A stretch of 64,000 bases of DNA from Candidatus Altimarinota bacterium (lineage in GTDB: Bacteria; Patescibacteriota; Gracilibacteria; CAIRYL01; GCA-016699755): assembly GCA_963664295.1 (NCBI GenBank), contig OY760935.1, positions 608,001 to 672,000 on the forward strand, read 5' to 3'. How positions within the stretch are numbered: the first letter of the stretch is position 1; the number at the start of each line of letters is the position of its first letter. Positions 9,756-54,915 of the stretch are shown here, piece after piece. Below the pieces are notes generated by a model that worked only from the letters and a program-made list of their open reading frames with translations, did no database searches and was not told the DNA's origin. The translations under genes and the position numbers were made by a program.

Positions 9756-10823
9756 TCAATTTGCGATTTTGGCTGGATACACCCCACCAGCCGAAAAGTT
9801 AACCTTACCATTGAAGCCACTCAAAGCCTCGATGGCCTCATAATTGACCTTGTATGGGGTGGCCAGGGTCAGTTCAGAGCCCTGAAAGTTTGCCAATATT
9901 TGCACAAACTCTCTAGCGTAGCTTGCTGTCTCAGGAGACAGCTGAAAGCCCAATTGAACGGTCAATTTTTTTGCATTTGACCGACTAATGGCTTCGAAGG
10001 ATTCCATGTAGATACCCCGATTTTTTTCGCAGGTTTCGAGGCATACTTCCAGTTCATCGCCGGCAAAAGCCACGATTTCATTGACCGCAGGGCTCTGACG
10101 TATGTGATACGTAAAGCGAGCCGAAACGCTCAATTTTTCGCCGCCAAAAGTGGCAAGGGCCTTCCAGACTTCAGGATCAAAGCAGATATCGACATCGAGC
10201 CTTAGCTCTCTGCCTTTGAAATTGGCAATGCGGCCAACAGTATCACCACTGGGAATGTGAAGCATGATGTCCAGCGTATCACACTGAAAGCTGGAAATTG
10301 CTTCCAGTGATTCCACTGTGGGCTGACCGAAAAACATGAGCTCAATGGCCCCCTGAAACGCAGACAACGCCTGCAATTGCTCGAAGCTGGGACAGTAGCG
10401 CATACACCAAATGCTCAATGTGTCACCCTGAAACTTGGTGGCAAGACTAGAAAGCACGCTGGGAGTAAAACAATCCCCCTCTTCCTTGTCAGCAAAACTC
10501 AGCCTTAGCGTATCTCCGTCAAATCGAGACAAACGCATGATTTCCCAGGGAGTAAAGCCATTTTTACTAGTGCTATACCAAAGGCCATCAGTAAACAGGG
10601 AAAAGCCCTGGTATTTTTGACTACTGCCACTACTGCCGATGCCTAAGGTGCTGACGTGCTCTGAAACCTCCTGAATGTTCCAAAGAGGAAAGTTGGGAAG
10701 ATCAAAGACTTTTTCCTGAGGCAAATCAGGGTCAACATAACCAATTCCGCCTGCCCAGCTCGCATTAGCGAGAGCAGTCAGAACGACCAATACGACAGTC
10801 AGTGTTTTACATGTTTTCTGCAT
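9756..10823 (-). CDS. Secreted protein with degenerate LRR-like repeats; GC-rich, probably acquired horizontally
   Basis: Signal peptide (VVLVVLTALANASWA); about 25-aa periodic motif (A/S)(L/I)xxFxGxxLxL; a sampled 60-nt line (10081-10140) is 50% GC, well above the flanks; SD AAAGGA upstream. Confidence 0.75.
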   Translation of the reverse strand: MQKTCKTLTVVLVVLTALANASWAGGIGYVDPDLPQEKVFDLPNFPLWNIQEVSEHVSTLGIGSSGSSQKYQGFSLFTDGLWYSTSKNGFTPWEIMRLSRFDGDTLRLSFADKEEGDCFTPSVLSSLATKFQGDTLSIWCMRYCPSFEQLQALSAFQGAIELMFFGQPTVESLEAISSFQCDTLDIMLHIPSGDTVGRIANFKGRELRLDVDICFDPEVWKALATFGGEKLSVSARFTYHIRQSPAVNEIVAFAGDELEVCLETCEKNRGIYMESFEAISRSNAKKLTVQLGFQLSPETASYAREFVQILANFQGSELTLATPYKVNYEAIEALSGFNGKVNFSAGGVYPAKIAN

Positions 10824-11151: not shown

Positions 11152-11623
11152 TGTCATTCTGAGCGGAGTGAAATGGAGCGAAGAATCTCCTTGTTTATTC
11201 TTTCAAAACCTGCCTTATCTTGTCATTGCGGAATTGATCCGCAATCTCCTTTACCATACGCTCAAAAACTAATTCGGTTATTACAATAGTAATGACTACG
11301 GGAGATCCTTCGTTTCACTCGGGATGACTGTTTTATTTGTCATTCTAAACAAACTATTTTTGTCATTCTGAGCGGAGTGAAGTAGAGCGAAGAATCTCCT
11401 TAAAACATATACTCAAACCTTGCCTTAGGTGTTCCTCTGCTGTCATTCTGAGCGAAGCGAAGAATCTCCTTGGACATGTGCCCAAAAACTAGCTTGGCTA
11501 TTACAGCAGTAATGACTACGGGAGATTCCTCGACTCGCCTAAAGGCTCGCTCGGAATGACAAAAAAGAAGATCAGGATGACAATCATTGTAAATGAAAAC
11601 ACTAAGCGATCCGCCTAGGCGGA
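11152..11623. repeat. Composite TGTC-tagged palindromic (REP/REPIN-like) array 1
   Basis: Multiple TGTCATTCTGAGCG...GAAGAATCTCC and TGTCATTGCGGA-ATTGA-TCCGCAATCT arms, with inverted GGAGAT...ATGAC arms. Confidence 0.9.
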
Positions 11624-13606: not shown

Positions 13607-14341
13607 ATGGCTAAGATAGGACTTATTGGTTATGGAAAAATGGGCAAATTAATCCACAAAATTGCGCTAGAAAGAGGGCATGAAGTTCCAGTTATTATTG
13701 ATGTTTCCGCTCCTGAAGCAACTGCGAGTGACATAACAGAAGAAAGCGTAAAAAATGCTGATGTTTTAATTGATTTTTCAATCCCCTCTTCTGCATTAAG
13801 CAATCTTGAAAAAGCTAGTAAACTAGGAAAAAATTATGTCATGGGCACAACTGGCTGGACCAACGAAATGGAAAAAGTAAAAAAAATAGTTGATGACGCA
13901 AAAATTGGCTTTATTTGGGGCTCTAATTTCTCTTTAATGGTGCAACTTTTTTTCAAAATTGCTCGCGAAACAGCAAAATTGGTCAATAAATATGATGATA
14001 TTGATGTAGCCACTTGGGAAGCTCATCACAAACACAAAATAGACTCTCCTAGTGGCACAGCGGAAACCATTGGTGAAATTCTGCTTTCTGAAATTGACCG
14101 CAAAAAAAATTTACTTTTAGATAGACCCGATGGCGCAATAAATCCTGAAGACCTACACTTAGCTACTATTCGTGTTGGCGAAGTACCTGGCACTCATGGG
14201 ATCATTTTTGACACTAATTCAGATACTATAGAAATCAAAAATACTTCCCGCTCTCGTGATGGTTTTGCACTTGGTGCTGTGATTGCATCAGAATTTATTG
14301 TTGATAAAACCGGTTTTTTTGATTTTAGAGATGTTGTGTAA
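13607..14341 (+). CDS. dapB: 4-hydroxy-tetrahydrodipicolinate reductase
   Basis: GYGKMG, DVLIDFS, GTTGW, EAHHKHKIDSPSGTA, SRDGFALGA. Confidence 0.95.
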   Translation: MAKIGLIGYGKMGKLIHKIALERGHEVPVIIDVSAPEATASDITEESVKNADVLIDFSIPSSALSNLEKASKLGKNYVMGTTGWTNEMEKVKKIVDDAKIGFIWGSNFSLMVQLFFKIARETAKLVNKYDDIDVATWEAHHKHKIDSPSGTAETIGEILLSEIDRKKNLLLDRPDGAINPEDLHLATIRVGEVPGTHGIIFDTNSDTIEIKNTSRSRDGFALGAVIASEFIVDKTGFFDFRDVV

Positions 14342-14368
14342 AATTTTTTATTGCTTAAATAAGCTATA

Positions 14369-14470
14369 TGTCATTGCCCGATTTGATCCACCACGGCGGA
14401 CTTACAATCGGACAATCCATTTGCCATCTAAATTTTCTGCTGGATTATCGGATCAAGCCCGATAATGACA
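14369..14470. repeat. Empty inverted doublet of TGTC-tagged palindromes (REPIN-like)
   Basis: Left arm TGTCATTGCCCGATTTGA[TCCACCACGGCGGAC insert]...TCGGACAATCC; right arm CTGGATTATCGGATCAAGCCCGATAATGACA (14440-14470). Confidence 0.8.
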
Positions 14471-14511
14471 ATAATGAATTATTAACCTTGTTATTAGCGA
14501 GTTTCTTTTTT

Positions 14512-14891
14512 TGTCATTGCCCGACTTGATCGGGCAATCCAGAAACTAAAAAATTATAACAAATCATTATATAAATCATTCCACTGAGGATTAATTTTTT
14601 CAATTAATTCAATTTTCCACTTACGACTCCATTTTTTAAGCTTTTTTTCATAAATAATTGCTGAATTAATATCATTAGTTTTCTTGTAATATACAAGCTT
14701 ATGAACATTATATTTACTAGTAAATCCATTAATTAAATTATTTTTGTGCTCATAAATTCTTTTTATTAAATTATTAGTAACTCCTGTATACAAAGTTCCA
14801 TTGCGACCACTTGCCAATATGTAAACATAATAATCTTTCATTGGTTTTATTTTTATCGTTCTGGATTATCGGATCAAGCCCGATAATGACA
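14512..14891. mobile_element. Putative REP-bounded GIY-YIG element
   Basis: Arms 14512-14542 (TGTCATTGCCCGACTTGATCGGGCAATCCAG) and 14861-14891 (inverted) tightly bracket the nuclease ORF. Mobility is inferred, not shown. Confidence 0.55.
14554..14841 (-). CDS. Small stand-alone GIY-YIG nuclease (COG2827-like)
   Basis: YYVYILAS..GTLYTGVTNNLIKRIYEH, FTSKY, AIIYEKKLKKWSRKWKIELIEKINPQW; more AT-rich than its neighbours. Confidence 0.93.
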   Translation of the reverse strand: MKDYYVYILASGRNGTLYTGVTNNLIKRIYEHKNNLINGFTSKYNVHKLVYYKKTNDINSAIIYEKKLKKWSRKWKIELIEKINPQWNDLYNDLL

Positions 14892-14992
14892 AAATAATCA
14901 AAAGTGTGCTAACGAATAACAATGAACAATGATAAATTTTATTCGAAAACTTTAAAAATACGCAAAACATACATAAAATATGTACATAATAA

Positions 14993-15027
14993 ACATAAAA
15001 AGTGTACATTTTGTACACTTTTTATGT
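14993..15027. repeat. Perfect 16-bp inverted repeat (lysA terminator or operator upstream of the nuclease)
   Basis: ACATAAAAAGTGTACA-ttt-TGTACACTTTTTATGT. Confidence 0.7.
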
Positions 15028-15049
15028 AAATTTTGCGCAAAACAACAAT

Positions 15050-16243
15050 TTAATTCAAATCCCAATTTCGCAAAACATCTTCAAAAGTTTGCCTTTTGCG
15101 AATTAAGCGCGTGCTACCATCAGACTCAATCAAAACCTCTGCTGGTAAAAGATGAAGATTGTAATTTGATGCCATGGCCATACTGTAAGCACCTGCATTC
15201 ATAATAGCCAAAATATCTCCTTCTCTTGGCTCTGCGATTTCCCTATCTTTTGCAAAAACATCACCAGATTCGCAAATATTGCCACCAACTGTGACTACTT
15301 TTTTTTCTGCATCAGGATTAGAGATGTTAACTATCTCATGATATGAACCATAAAGCATTGGTCTTACAAGCTGGCTATAACCTGAATCCACCATTACAAA
15401 AGTTTTTTGAGGATTATTTTTCACTGCATTCACTTTAGTCAATAAAACACCAGATTCTGCAAGCAGTACTCTTCCTGGCTCAATCCACATTTCAACTTCA
15501 TCATTGCCTTTTGTTTTGCGAAATTCTTCAAATTTTTCCTTTGCTTTTTTACCTAATTCTTTTAAGTCTAAAGCTACTTCATCTGGTTTATAAGGAATGC
15601 CAAATCCGCCACCAAAATCAACAAACTTAAGGTCTTCAAAATCTTTAGCAGTGTCTAAAATAATATCCATCATTTGTAGATAGGTTTCTATATCGAGAAT
15701 ACCTGAACCAATATGAGTTTGTGTGCCTATTAATTTTAAATCATATTTTTTTACAATTTCTTTTACTTGGTCTGAATAAGTGTAATCTATGCCAAACTTT
15801 GAGTCAGTTCCGCCAGTTATATTGTGCTCATGGTGACCACCACCAACATTAGGATTAACACGAATAGAAACTTCGGCACCTGGCTGAATTTGTCCAACTT
15901 TTTCCAGCTCAGCCAAAGAGCCAACATTAAGCACAATGCCAGCATTAAGGGCAAAACGAATTCCTTTTTCATCTGTGCTAGCAGGAGTAAAAATAATATT
16001 TTCCGGCCTAAAACCAACTTCTAAAGCAAGTTTAGCTTCGCCCAAAGAAACTGTATCAACTCCTGAACCTTGACTTAAAAGAGTTTTTAAAATTTCTGGA
16101 TTATTATTAGACTTCATTGCGAACAAAATTTTTGTTCGCAAACCATCAAAAGACTCTTTAACAAGAGAATATTGATTTATTATTTTTTTGGCATCATAAA
16201 CATAAAGAGGTGTGCCGTATTGTATTGCTAAATTTTCTAACAT
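15050..16243 (-). CDS. lysA: Diaminopimelate decarboxylase
   Basis: YGTPLYVYD, PLP lysine FAMKSN, SKFGI, HIGSGI, DFGGGFG, EPGR, GNICESGD, MASNYN. Confidence 0.95.
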   Translation of the reverse strand: MLENLAIQYGTPLYVYDAKKIINQYSLVKESFDGLRTKILFAMKSNNNPEILKTLLSQGSGVDTVSLGEAKLALEVGFRPENIIFTPASTDEKGIRFALNAGIVLNVGSLAELEKVGQIQPGAEVSIRVNPNVGGGHHEHNITGGTDSKFGIDYTYSDQVKEIVKKYDLKLIGTQTHIGSGILDIETYLQMMDIILDTAKDFEDLKFVDFGGGFGIPYKPDEVALDLKELGKKAKEKFEEFRKTKGNDEVEMWIEPGRVLLAESGVLLTKVNAVKNNPQKTFVMVDSGYSQLVRPMLYGSYHEIVNISNPDAEKKVVTVGGNICESGDVFAKDREIAEPREGDILAIMNAGAYSMAMASNYNLHLLPAEVLIESDGSTRLIRKRQTFEDVLRNWDLN

Positions 16244-16255
16244 TTTTTTAATTGA

Positions 16256-17131
16256 TTAAAGTTTTTCTAAAATTTTTTTAATTTCTTCCTGTTTTTCCTG
16301 TTCTGGCGAATATAAAGGTAGCCTTAAAACAGGCTTACACAGGCGCTTTAAAAACATTATATATTTTATCGAAGCTGGATTACCTGCCAAAAAACAAGCT
16401 CCAAAAAAATCCACATATTTTTTATGGATTTTTTCTGCTTCATTAAATTGTTTATTATTTAAAAAATTCATCATCTCAGTAAGCTCTGCTGGAAAAAGAT
16501 TGGAAGCAACAGAGACAAGCCCTTCTGCGCCCACTTGTGCAAAATCATAAGCCAAGGCATCATCACCAGAAAGCACTGTAAAATCATCAGGTTTTTTATT
16601 GCAAATTTCTCGCACTTGCTCAAGATCACCACTTGCTTCTTTGATAGCAACTATATTAGGTATTTCTGCTAAACGCAGAGTTGTTTCCGGAAACATATTT
16701 ACTCCTGTTCGTCCAGGTACGTTATAAAGCATAATCGGTAAATTTGGTACAGACTCAGATATAGCTTTAAAATGCTGATATATGCCTTCTTGTGAAGGTT
16801 TATTATAATAAGGGACTACTTGCAATGTACCATCAACACCTAACTTTTCTGCTTCTTTTGTGCGGATAATTGCTTCTTTTGTACAATTTGCACCTGTACC
16901 AGCAACAACCTTGCACCTTCCCTTTGCTGTTTCTACTGCAATTTTAACTACTTCTAAATGCTCTTCCTCGGAGAGAGTTGGGCTCTCACCCGTTGTTCCA
17001 CAAGGAACAATGCCATTTATGCCTGACTTTATTTGTCTTTCAATAAGATCGACAAAAGTATCTCTGTCTAGAGATTGGTTTTCCCAAAAAGGGGTCACCA
17101 GGGCTGTGAAAACACCTTTGAATTTGCTCAT
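16256..17131 (-). CDS. dapA: 4-hydroxy-tetrahydrodipicolinate synthase
   Basis: TALVTPF, GTTGESPTL, PYYNKP, LYNVPGRTG, IKEASG. Confidence 0.97.
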   Translation of the reverse strand: MSKFKGVFTALVTPFWENQSLDRDTFVDLIERQIKSGINGIVPCGTTGESPTLSEEEHLEVVKIAVETAKGRCKVVAGTGANCTKEAIIRTKEAEKLGVDGTLQVVPYYNKPSQEGIYQHFKAISESVPNLPIMLYNVPGRTGVNMFPETTLRLAEIPNIVAIKEASGDLEQVREICNKKPDDFTVLSGDDALAYDFAQVGAEGLVSVASNLFPAELTEMMNFLNNKQFNEAEKIHKKYVDFFGACFLAGNPASIKYIMFLKRLCKPVLRLPLYSPEQEKQEEIKKILEKL

Positions 17132-39947: not shown

Positions 39948-39982
39948 TTTATTTTAATTAAATTTTTTATTTATAAAGTTGT

Positions 39983-42900
39983 TTAGTATTCTGACAGTTT
40001 ACTTCCTAATTTTTCCTTTACCTCTTGTTGGTCCCTGAGAGTATTATTTAATGATAAACGGTTCAAGTTGCCTTTAGATAATTTTTCTGCGACTTCTGAA
40101 CTTATGGAAGTAAGTCCGTATAAATGCAAATGACCCAAGTTGCCTTTAGCTAATTTTTCTGCGACTTCTGGAGTTATGGAAGTAAGTCCTTTTAAATACA
40201 AATAATTAAAGTTGCCATTAGCTAATTTTTCTGCGACATCTGGAGTTATGGAAGTAAGTCTGTCTAAAGACAAAAAAGTCAAGTTGTTATTAGCTAATTT
40301 TTCTGCGACTTCTGGAGTTATGGAAGTAAGTCCGTCTAAATGCAAAGAAGCCGAATTGTTATTAGCTAATTTTTCTGCGACTTCTGGAGTTATGGAAGTA
40401 AGTCCGTCTAAAAACAAAGAAGTCAAGTTGTTATTAGCTAATTTTTCTGCGACTTCTGGAGTTATGGAAGTAAGTCCGTCTAAATACAAACGACCCAAGT
40501 TGCCATTAGCTAATTTTTCTGCGACATCTGGAGTTATGGAAGTAAGTCCGTTTAAATACAAATAATTAAAGTTGCCATTAGCTAATTTTTCTGCGACATC
40601 TGGAGTTATGGAAGTAAGTCCGTCTAAAGACAAAAAAGTCAAGTTGTTATTAGCTAATTTTTCTGCAACTTCTGGAGTTATTGAAGTAAGTCTGTTTAAA
40701 TGCAAAGAAGTCAAGTTGTTATTAGCTAATTTTTCTGCAACTTCTGGAGCTATGGAAGTCAGTCCGCTTAAATGCAAAGAAGTCAAGTTGTTATTAGCTA
40801 ATTTTTCTGCAACTTCTGGAGTTATTGAAGTAAGTCCGTTTAAATACAAAGAAGTCGAATTGCCATTAGCTAATTTTTCTGCAACTTCTGGAGTTATGGA
40901 AGTAAGTCTGTTTAAATACAAATAATTCAAGTTGCCTTTAGCTAATTTTTCTGCAACTTCTGGAGTTATTGAAGTAAGTCCGTTTAAATACAAAGAAGTC
41001 GAATTGCCATTAGCTAATTTTTCTGCAACTTCTGGAGTTAGGCTTTTTAAAGCTTGAATATCACTATATGAAAAATTACCCTCTAATATTTTTTGATATA
41101 ATTGTAATTGTTCTTGTTCATCTTCACTAGAAGCTTCTTCTGCTTCCGCAGGCATTTCATCTCCTATATCATCAAGTAAATCATCTATTGCTTCATTTTC
41201 TGTATCTGATAATCCTGTTAAAACATCACCTACTTCTTCTTCCGTGATCTCAGCATCTTCTTCTAGGCCTAGTTCTAAATCCTCTTCGTTTGCGCTTTCT
41301 GGTGCATCATCAATTTGCGATGCATCAATCACCTCTTCAGAAGCAGAATCATCAACCTCTGACCATTCTGCATCTACCACCTCATCAGAAGGGCTTGTTT
41401 GTAATGATGACTGCTGTTGCTGTGAATCTGCCTCTTCTTGAGCTGGTTCTGAACCTAATTCAGAACCTAAGCCTAGATCGTCAGCATCTTCTTCTGCCAT
41501 TGCCTGTATATCTAGCTCTGCTTTTTTTTCGTTTGCGCTTTCTGGTGCATCATCAATTTGCGGTGCATCAATCACCTCTTCAGAAGCAGAATCATCAACC
41601 TCTGACCATTCTGCATCTACCACCTCATCAGAAGGGCTTGTTTGTAATGATGACTGCTGTTGCTGTGAATCTGCCTCTTCTTGAGCTGGTTCTGAACCTA
41701 ATTCAGAACCTAAGCCTAGATCGTCAGCATCTTCTTCTGATTCTTGTTCTGCTACTTCTGCTTCTGTTTCTAGGTCTAAACCTAGATCGTCAGTGTCTTG
41801 TTCTGATTCTTGTTCTGCTACTTCTGCTTCTGTTTCTAGGTCTAAGCCTAGATCGTCAGCATCTTCTTCTGATTCTTGTTCTGCTACTTCTGCTTTTTTG
41901 TTGATCACAGCAGTCTCTGTTGCATTATCTAGGCCTATTATTTCACCTTCAAATTTAGCCAAAGCTAAAATAGCTGCATCATCACTTACTGATAAGCCTG
42001 AAAACATTATTGATCCAACTGTAGATTGTGCCAACTCTTTTATTGCGTTAGGAGTTATGACTTGAAGGTCATTCAAAATTAAAACATATCCATTATACTT
42101 TGCTAGTTCTTTTGCTTCTTCAGACTCTAATTTAGCCAAGCCCTCAATTTTCAAAGTGTAACCATTAAAACTTGCTAGCGCAATAGCTATCTCAGGACTC
42201 AATTGATTAAAACAATTTACAAAACAAAGTTCACTTACAACAGCCTTGCATAACTCCTTCATTACAAGTGGGCTAATATGTGTAAGACTTTTAAACTGAA
42301 GTCGATTTTTTATAAAACCTCCTAATATTTTTGCTTCATCAAGTTCTAACCTACGAAGTTTATCAAAATCAATATTTCTAAAACCTGAGAATTTAATCTT
42401 GTGAGCAATATCTACAGTAAGCTCTTCTATGTTTTCTATGTCATCTTTATTAAAATCACCGCTTAATATTCTTTGCTTTATTTGTTCTTGTTCATCTAAA
42501 CTTTCATTTGCTTCTTGATCTACACTATTCAGCAAGTTATCTAAATTATCTTGACTTAATGCTCCCTCTTCATCGAGTTCTCTCGACGCTCCTATATCTG
42601 TATCTAAGTCTAAGCTTGGTGCTAGTTCTTGTGGGCTTGGTTCTGACTCTGGGGCAGACTGTGGCTGTGACTGTGGCTGTGGTTCTGGCTCTGGGGCAGA
42701 CTGTGGCTGTTGCTGTGGTTCTGGCTCTGAGGCAGACTGTGGCTGTTGCTGTGGTTCTGGCTCTGGGGCAGACTGTGGCTGTTGCTGTGGTTCTGATCTT
42801 GTTGCATTAGCTCTTCTTTGATTTGATACATCCTCTACTTCTACAAAATTAGCCACTTCTTCAAAAAATCCAAGTGTTTTCTTTGGCAAATCTCCACCAG

Positions 42901-49837: not shown

Positions 49838-50614
49838 CGTCATTGCGAATCTAAAAAAAAGGATCGTCATTGTGGGCTTTTTGGGTTGTCATTGTGGACT
49901 TTTTGGATTGTCATTGCGGACTTTTTGGGGTGTCATTGCGAGGAACCTGCCTCTTTTTTTGTCATTATCGGACTTGATCCGATAATCCAGAGAATCATGT
50001 CATTGCGGACTTGATCCGCAATCTCCTTGTCCATGTGCCCAACTCCTATCTTGTCATTGCGGGCTGTTTAGGGTGGTGTCATTGCGGACTTGATCCGCAA
50101 TCTCGGGAGGCAGGAGGTCTCATTGTGAACATAAAACACACCCTTACTGTCATTCTGAGCGGAATGAAATGGAGCGAAGAATCTCCTTGTCCATGCGCTC
50201 AAGTCCTGCCTTAGGTAATTCAACAGTAATGACAACGGGAGATCCTTCGCTTCGCCTAAAGGCTCGCTCAGGATGACATACTATTTCTGTCATTCTGAGC
50301 GAAAAACACTCCCTTTTTGTCATTCTGAGCGGAATGAAATGGAGCGAAGAATCTCCTTGTCCATGCGCTCAAAATCTATCTTGTCATTGCGGACTTTTTG
50401 GGGTGTCATTGCGAGGAACCTGCCTCTTTTTTTGTCATTATCGGACTTGATCCGATAATCCAGAGAATCATGTCATTGCGGACTTGATCCGCAATCTCCT
50501 TGTCCATGCGCTCAAGTCCTGCCTTAGGTAATTCAACAGTAATGACAACGGGAGATCCTTCGCTTCGCCTAAAGGCTCGCTCAGGATGACAGAGTAAAGG
50601 GGCTCAGAATGACA
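49838..50614. repeat. Composite TGTC-tagged palindromic array 3 (largest)
   Basis: More than 15 GTCATT/ATGAC arms of several stem variants; internal direct duplications 49909-50035=50382-50508 and 50180-50278=50493-50591. Confidence 0.95.
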
Positions 50615-54463: not shown

Positions 54464-54915
54464 TTTTGAGGGTGTCATTGTGGGCTTTTTGAGGGTGTCA
54501 TTGCGGACTTTTTGAGGATGTCATTACGGACTTTTTGAGGATGTCATTACGGACTTGATCCACAATCTCGGCAGGTGTCATTCTGAGCGCAAAACACACC
54601 CTTGCTGTCATTCTGAGCGAAATGAAATGGAGCGAAGAATCTCCTTGTCCATTTGCTCAAGTCCTGCCTTAGGTAATTCAATAGTAATGACTACAGGAGA
54701 TCCTGAATCGAGTTCAGGATGACATACTATTTTTGTCATTCTGAGCGTAATGAAATGGAGCGAAGAATCTCCTTGTCCATTTGCTCAAGTCCTGCCTTAG
54801 GTAATTCAACAGTAATGACACAGGAGATCCTTCGCTTCGCCTAAAGGCTCGCTCAGGATGACAGAAAAAGTAAGAGAGAGGGAGAATGACAGAAGAAAGG
54901 GGCTCAAGATAACAG
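54464..54915. repeat. Composite TGTC-tagged palindromic array 4
   Basis: Four 23-bp tandem half-arms (TTTTTGAGG(G/A)TGTCATT(G/A)(T/C)GG(G/A)C), then two REPIN-like doublets and trailing ATGAC remnants. Confidence 0.93.

Follow-up and report, generated by a model that had tools for sequence, protein, structure and literature searches.

The GIY-YIG nucleases of the Ssn family (Chenal et al. 2025, PMC11893778) are single-domain proteins of ~94 aa (cd10448), which are flanked by hairpin repeats designated NTS or SRM. According to the available text of that report, four Ssn homologs cut only single-stranded DNA (ssDNA), only on the forward strand and a few bases 5' of the motif. The arrangement NTS-ssnA-NTS was likened there to an insertion sequence and to TnpA with REP/BIME, and the hypothesis was raised that Ssn drives the spread of the repeats. 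Another described class, the CGTC-tagged REPs, comprises families CGTC-1 to CGTC-4, including dRS3, RPE-4 and RPE-6 (PMC3733652). How CGTC-type REPs spread without a transposase is a question posed in that paper, whose available text mentions no nuclease in connection with them (GIY-YIG, "leading" and "lagging" each occur 0 times). As far as the available parts of two further papers go, 11 REP arrays of Pseudomonas take opposite orientations on either side of the genome (PMC3116915), and use of the lagging-strand template has been proposed for BIMEs (PMC3333891).

In the window (the whole analysed stretch of DNA, 64,000 nucleotides) we examined a small nuclease gene, ssn, and the hairpin arms around it. 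The host genome is a single contig (C1) of 1,215,430 bp and is 100% complete. The features of the region are as follows:

13607-14341, + strand: dapB, the left neighbour (ORF and domain evidence)
14369-14419, + strand: arm A, a decayed hairpin of the arm C type with an insertion in the loop; left arm of a gene-less doublet (sequence, fold)
14388-14399, strand not assigned: hairpin of a second type, CCRCC-n-GGYGG, in the loop of arm A (repeat search)
14440-14470, - strand: arm B, identical to arm D (0 mismatches); right arm of the gene-less doublet (alignment)
14512-14542, + strand: arm C, with a TGTC tag, 9-bp stem, 5-nt loop and CCAG tail; downstream of ssn, tag outward (sequence, fold)
14554-14841, - strand: ssn, encoding a 95-aa single-domain GIY-YIG nuclease assigned to the Ssn family (PF01541, homology, fold model)
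14861-14891, - strand: arm D, upstream of ssn, tag outward, on the predicted lagging-strand template (alignment, fold)
14865-14892, - strand: predicted sigma-70-like promoter match (10/12) within arm D, directed at the ssn start (motif scan)
14993-15027, - strand: terminator-like palindrome 3' of lysA, which parts lysA from ssn (motif scan)
15050-16243, - strand: lysA, the right neighbour (ORF and domain evidence)

ORF coordinates and domain content confirmed the original prediction of an AT-rich GIY-YIG gene lying between convergent dapB and lysA and bracketed by arms C and D, 11 and 19 bp away, with both tags directed outward. The GC content of ssn is 22.6% (33.5% for the genome), within the lowest 0.1% of the 942 called ORFs. 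Arm D may be the source of a promoter for the gene, as judged from a weak scan that gave 9 sites in the region versus 5.2 expected. Together with dapA, the neighbouring genes form a lysine-pathway cluster (window 13607-17131) in this Patescibacteria-type genome of 1.2 Mb.

Arms A to D share the order TGTC, stem-loop opened by AT, and a tail led by C. Arms C and D had been described as an inverted 31-bp pair; the inverted, tags-outward orientation holds, but the repeat is imperfect (7 of 31 positions differ) and each arm is a hairpin of its own, with ssDNA folds of -10 kcal/mol (z -5.8) for arm C and -5.5 kcal/mol (z -3.0) for arm D. Likewise, the doublet beside them does carry the identical right arm and a spacer of 20 bp (14420-14439), but its left arm is broken by an insertion of ~20 nt bearing the second hairpin type and folds no better than shuffled sequences (58 of 200 shuffles were equally stable). 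Since A is of the type of C and B of the type of D, the gene-less doublet appears to have been copied locally from the filled pair. Rather than an unoccupied target site, it is likely to be a duplicate from which ssn has been lost or into which it never entered.

The CCRCC-n-GGYGG hairpin has 12 copies in the genome, several of which lie within SRM-like arms and three next to fragments of tRNA-Pro. It recurs inside the loops of TGTC arms at C1:143,380, 248,821, 435,316 and 759,351 and in other genomes (loci L054 and L126), and in genome G047 the second hairpin type has the form CCTGCC/GGCAGG. One repeat family (CCRCC/GGYGG) thus seems to target the loops of the other (TGTC arms). Outside the window, at C1:482,630-483,400, a second kind of small GIY-YIG gene is present as two identical tandem copies beside tRNA-Pro(TGG), each bracketed by partial tRNA copies with a CCGCC-n-GGCGG hairpin. 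Their product is only 35% identical to the Ssn protein and TGTC arms are absent from this locus; ssn itself is present in one copy in the genome.

The product of ssn is very probably a member of the Ssn family. Its only domain is GIY-YIG (PF01541, residues 4-77, E 5.7e-15; Pfam), and with 95 aa it falls within the size defined for single-domain Ssn proteins (<150 aa). The protein is identical at 51 of 90 positions (57%) to a homolog of Neisseria gonorrhoeae whose gene is surrounded, within 1.2 kb, by 9 NTS copies; the E values were 3e-19 in the collection search and 2e-33 in the pairwise comparison. With this homolog as a stand-in for Neisseria SsnA, the match lies within the limits of the Ssn test (BLAST E < 1e-10, at least 75% coverage). 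In an alignment of 35 homologs, residues Y7, Y18, G20, E65 and N84 were invariant, R28 and H32 nearly so, and K53 occupies a position at which most homologs have glutamate. The spacing of Y7/Y18/E65 is that of Y6/Y17/E64 in SsnA, mutation of which abolishes cutting, according to the available text of PMC11893778. The AlphaFold model (pLDDT 94) gave the GIY-YIG domains of UPF0213 and Slx1 as its top structural matches in the PDB, with no Ssn structure among the matches, and searches of NCBIfam and of PDB sequences with the protein returned no named match. In N. gonorrhoeae record NZ_CP119142.1, no ATG stands in frame near the start of the ssnA-like reading frame, and one occurs just upstream, one frame off; this gene may be frameshifted.

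Is the pairing of the nuclease gene with such hairpins a general feature? Among 68 homolog loci from many phyla, 64 had full flanks and were counted: an arm was present within 200 bp of the gene at 48 of them, on both sides at 36, and in the tags-outward inverted layout at 28, versus a single arm-bearing window among 54 controls placed ~1.2 kb away. The enrichment expected from the original prediction was thus found. In class relatives, arms were detected at 19 of 27 loci. In-frame TGA occurs in several class relatives and hints that the host is a Gracilibacteria/Peregrinibacteria-type Patescibacterium. An alignment of 30 arms showed covariation of the stem (93% of cells paired, two-sided changes in 7 of 8 pairs), a result partly built in, since these arms had been chosen as hairpins.

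The published SRM pattern recognises many of these flanks poorly. Arms B, C and D depart from it by 2 substitutions, arm A fails even at 3, and no copy of the arm family in the genome fits it exactly; the only exact match is unrelated (0-2 matches in shuffled genomes). Although 48 of the 64 homolog loci carry arms, only 21 have an arm with the SRM pattern, and the pattern occurs near only 71% of Ssn homologs in the published set, as given in the available text of PMC11893778. It is therefore a search tool that misses many flanks.

Repeat numbers in whole genomes were estimated with a model (R1) built from 30 arms of 28-29 nt, which under-counts long-loop arms; as 122-150 candidates were scored per genome, all counts are minimum values. 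Of the genomes with an Ssn-like gene (E <= 1e-15), 19 of 27 had at least 5 matches, versus 4 of 33 without such a gene; these counts include kin and so are not independent. Exceptions occur in both directions: 8 of the 27 Ssn-positive genomes have fewer than 5 matches, one of the 4 repeat-bearing genomes without Ssn contains a broken ssn copy, and three relatives have at least 12-15 repeats and no Ssn-like match to this query, among them the single-contig genomes G002 and G045 (at least 12-13 repeats). Profile searches of the complete genome for Y1/RAYT (PF01797), DDE_Tnp_1, rve, TnpB and DUF559 gave no match. The failure to find a RAYT, originally noted for the window, extends to the complete genome. 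The homolog loci show that nuclease and TGTC hairpins go together.

Scanning of the host genome yielded 162 hairpin matches of four subtypes in 34 clusters, versus 0-1 matches in 5 shuffles, and 70 copies of the arm family, versus 0-2 in 12 shuffled genomes. The tag is TGTC in 156 of the 162 matches, and 38 neighbouring pairs are arranged head-to-head ('+-'). No repeat head (0/184) lies within an ORF of at least 150 aa (30-nt margins), and such ORFs cover 85% of the genome. Arm C has the features of a CGTC-type REP, i.e. a CGTC/TGTC tag, an AT-opened stem of 8-9 bp, a loop of 4-5 nt and a CCA-like tail, and the repeats are, as in that class, extragenic, multicopy and often head-to-head. The combination that defines REPIN/RAYT systems, a GTAG tag with a cognate HUH Y1 transposase, is absent from this genome. 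Three large arrays are situated in the window:

11152-11561, + strand: mosaic array of TGTC-tag hairpins, with ATT-type arms on the + strand and partner arms on the - strand (subtype scan)
49838-50591, + strand: mosaic array of truncated heads, two arms of ssn's own subtype and head-to-head doublets, of the same polarity (subtype scan)
54464-54863, + strand: mosaic array of stuttered truncated heads and doublets, of the same polarity (subtype scan)

These arrays had been attributed to the arm family of ssn; their hairpins do carry the GTCAT tag, but most belong to subtypes other than those of the ssn arms. Truncation affects 39 of the 85 heads of the commonest subtype; of these, 32 stand 22-33 nt ahead of another tag, which points to local growth at the 5' side, where the nick would be expected. 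Slippage could also explain the stutter. The array at 11152 adjoins an ORF of 355 aa (window 9756-10823, - strand) with a signal-like N-terminus, recurring short motifs and no Pfam match. Long tandem repeats of other kinds (72-bp period; 66/243-bp and 12-bp units) occupy window positions 39975-41138, 41269-41903 and 42626-42829, apparently within a low-complexity coding region.

The orientation of the repeats follows the replichores. The commonest subtype has its heads on the - strand at C1:143-371 kb and on the + strand at 435-762 kb, a rule followed by 84 of 85 heads and by 29 of 30 clusters; the lone exception, at 924 kb, has no hairpin. All three ATT subtypes are on the predicted leading-strand template (84/85, 33/33 and 4/4 heads) and the partner subtypes on the opposite strand (27/28, 17/17 and 3/3); 44 of 45 ATC-type arms are on the predicted lagging-strand template. 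As the ATT and partner subtypes occupy opposite strands genome-wide, doublets and arrays have been inserted or kept in one orientation. The minor subtypes are mixed (1/3 and 6/8), and ssn's own subtype follows the polarity in 11 of 14 copies, the misses being arms B and D and a copy at 391,862, which merely shifts the switch. When two arcs were freely chosen, 31 of 31 clusters fitted them, a result equalled by 0 of 5000 permutations in a test that left out ssn's own subtype and two minor ones and used subtype patterns defined after the polarity had been noticed. Within clusters, 167 of 168 arms agree with the orientation of their cluster.

Transcription was rejected as the cause of this polarity. 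Convergent gene pairs, at which transcription is symmetric, gave 16 of 16 cases in agreement with the replichore, and 30 of 31 clusters agree with it in convergent, divergent and co-oriented contexts taken together.

The labels of origin, terminus, leading and lagging used here derive solely from GC skew. The switch of orientation (C1:370,836-391,862) falls near the predicted terminus: the GC-skew minimum lies at 982.3 kb, and its antipode, around which the switch is placed, at 374.6 kb. The GC-skew maximum (330-333 kb) is 40-60 kb off the switch. A dnaA-like gene (C1:683,816-685,222) lies ~300 kb from the minimum; the 5-kb bin at 980 kb contains five DnaA-box matches, as do two other bins, and a scan for dif-like sites gave 12 loose matches, which do not fix the terminus. 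With the G-rich strand taken as the leading one, the leading-strand template carries the unpaired and ATT arms in forward reading; these arms avoid the strand exposed as ssDNA at the fork. Repeat-derived words fill most of the list of the most strand-polarised 8-mers of the genome. Repeat clusters are sparse near the predicted origin, with 2 of 34 clusters and 3 of 195 heads within 200 kb of the GC-skew minimum.

In relatives the pattern was found in part. Across six of them (95 of 98 model matches scored, with a loose test for partners), 16 of 21 singletons in windows of clear skew were on the leading template (p 0.027), with 8 of 9 in G045, and two ATT/ATC pairs in G002, of the same family, are oriented as in the ssn genome. 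No polarity was evident in G021, G047 or the Parvibaculum genome G061; the strands are interleaved among the repeat matches listed for G063, G064 and G066; and one NTS subtype of N. gonorrhoeae (31 copies, 20 forward and 11 reverse) is interleaved as well, with no polarity evident by position alone. The polarity is therefore strong in the ssn genome and partial in some relatives, and is no family-wide rule. It is real and apparently unreported, and derives mainly from one genome: we found no report of replichore polarity of CGTC or SRM repeats in the literature outside subscription papers, and the terms "lagging", "replichore" and "leading strand" are absent from the available text of PMC11893778 (figures aside).

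The original prediction proposed a search for empty dapB-lysA sites in related genomes. None was found in the family genomes or in the contigs of 4 runs from 2 samples. Both genes are present in 6 of 7 family genomes, and an ABC-dapB pair is kept in 6 of 7, but the dapB-lysA junction is not conserved: in the six ABC-dapB genomes neither lysA nor ssn occurs downstream of dapB (within at most 1.5 kb, and 100-200 bp in three loci), and in G001 and G006 lysA is ~11 kb away on the other side of dapB, so that the family offers no comparable empty junction. A related strain from a seawater run has arms B and C and most of ssn, which differs by 2 silent and 2 replacement changes. In the contigs of the 4 runs from 2 samples, which reveal presence only, no joint lacking the cassette was seen. 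GIY-YIG nucleases hydrolyse DNA, and we know of none for which strand transfer has been described.

The polarity suggests a single-strand, fork-linked process, and we consider it probable that Ssn nicks TGTC hairpins in ssDNA and that host repair at the fork multiplies them, hence their replication-directed orientation. The protein is predicted to recognise, in ssDNA, the hairpin with the TGTC tag and to nick a few bases 5' of that tag, an activity expected from its homologs. Its substrate would be ssDNA at the fork and also incoming DNA, the latter because comEC and dprA are encoded in the genome. Since a GIY-YIG domain makes no covalent intermediate, the copying would be left to host enzymes: RecA, a polymerase and ligase would copy the hairpins while healing the nicks. 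The healed nicks would extend arrays locally and seed new sites in a fixed orientation, and multiplication linked to the fork would orient the repeats by the direction of replication. The ssn gene may then be a selfish or partly domesticated passenger inside one doublet. The nuclease-driven spread first proposed for this locus is thus retained in modified form. Its central step, the nicking of TGTC hairpins, has been shown near such hairpins for four homologs (available text of PMC11893778) and is predicted for the present protein. A wider reading is tentative: Ssn might be the missing mobiliser of CGTC-type REPs, which would be transposase-free, replichore-polarised selfish repeats spread by a fork nick and host repair, recorded almost perfectly in this genome.

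The same polarity could be the outcome of removal. Repeats would arise in either orientation through slippage and recombination by the host; cleavable arms would be cleared from the exposed lagging-strand template by the nuclease, or by selection against fork breakage, and the poorly cut subtypes would be left there. This agrees with the avoidance of the predicted lagging-strand template by unpaired and tandem arms, with the singletons of relatives that lean the same way (16/21) and with the mere 3 of 195 heads within 200 kb of the predicted origin. However, nearly all ATC-type arms (44/45) lie on the predicted lagging template and must then be non-substrates, and arms B and D of ssn itself are located there; such a purge seems to us rather unlikely. 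Incoming DNA can enter as either strand, and this gives no replichore bias, which weighs against a domesticated regulator of DNA uptake that, as in Neisseria, trims incoming ssDNA. In such a case the polarity would have to come from a host translocase or recombination site (KOPS- or Chi-like). Repeat words do dominate the most strand-polarised 8-mers, but Chi and KOPS are short scattered words, unlike clustered hairpin mosaics of 29-41 nt with subtype-specific orientation. The presence of comEC and dprA, the persistence of repeats in genomes without an Ssn match, and the lowering of N. meningitidis transformation by SsnA (available text of PMC11893778) speak for a role in uptake, and we regard this explanation of the locus as improbable.

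Two explanations invoke transposition. In its strong form, the original reading makes the filled pair an autonomous transposon, excised and inserted whole, and the empty doublets its non-autonomous derivatives. The tags-outward inverted layout at 28 of 64 homolog loci, the very low GC content of ssn, its patchy and multi-copy occurrence in relatives and the orientation bias typical of ssDNA transposons such as IS200/IS605 (PMC3971601, available text) count in its favour, but ssn is single-copy in its own genome, neither an empty site nor a skipping joint was found, GIY-YIG enzymes are without known strand-transfer chemistry, and the arms of most doublets differ in subtype from those of ssn, all of which makes a transposon of this kind very improbable. 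Spread of the repeats by a RAYT or other transposase, encoded elsewhere or since lost, with the nuclease as a bystander, is largely refuted and retains hardly any probability: the complete genome has no Y1_Tnp match, arms flank the GIY-YIG gene across many phyla, and CGTC repeats have been reported without a flanking transposase (PMC3733652, available text). The one parallel is that the RAYT-linked REP arrays of Pseudomonas are also oppositely oriented on the two genome sides (PMC3116915, available text).

Among known systems, the locus is placed as follows. The original prediction left room for an undescribed mechanism; the pairing of nuclease and repeats, the cutting of ssDNA on the 5' side of the tag and a comparison to IS200/IS605 TnpA-REP are in fact already contained in the available text of PMC11893778. 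The cassette is an Ssn/hairpin pair of the published system, and the new point is the replichore polarity. The cassette adds one such pair, whose arms lie beyond the published motif and which might serve as a new specificity for cutting ssDNA. The near-perfect, subtype-specific polarity predicts which strand and arm type are cut and the fork orientation of copy gain or loss, and makes the spread of CGTC-type repeats testable.

Like Ssn/SsnA of N. meningitidis (PMC11893778, as far as its available text goes), the system comprises a GIY-YIG protein of ~95 aa with the catalytic spacing and with tag-hairpin-tail flanks that recur genome-wide. It differs in that its arms are outside the SRM pattern, several arm subtypes occur with one nuclease, the repeats are polarised by replichore, and the host is a small-genome Patescibacteria-type bacterium; the names of four Patescibacteria-type groups are absent from 13 supplementary files of that paper. 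With the CGTC-tagged REPs, as described in the available text of PMC3733652, it shares the TGTC/CGTC tag, the AT-opened stem of 8-9 bp, the 4-5 nt loop, the CCA-like tail, head-to-head heterodimers and the lack of a dedicated transposase, whereas long-loop subtypes and stuttered heads are common in the present genome. Inverted doublets, mosaic arrays of tagged hairpins and a single-copy gene for an ssDNA nuclease are features in common with REP/REPIN/BIME-RAYT systems (PMC3116915, PMC3333891; available text), in which, however, a GTAG tag is combined with a strand-rejoining HUH transposase, instead of a TGTC tag with a hydrolytic GIY-YIG nuclease. The predicted strand-specific recognition of ssDNA hairpins and a chromosome-wide orientation bias linked to the lagging-strand template recall IS200/IS605 (PMC3971601, available text); for the Y1 transposase, circular intermediate and tetranucleotide target of those elements, no counterpart was found in this system.
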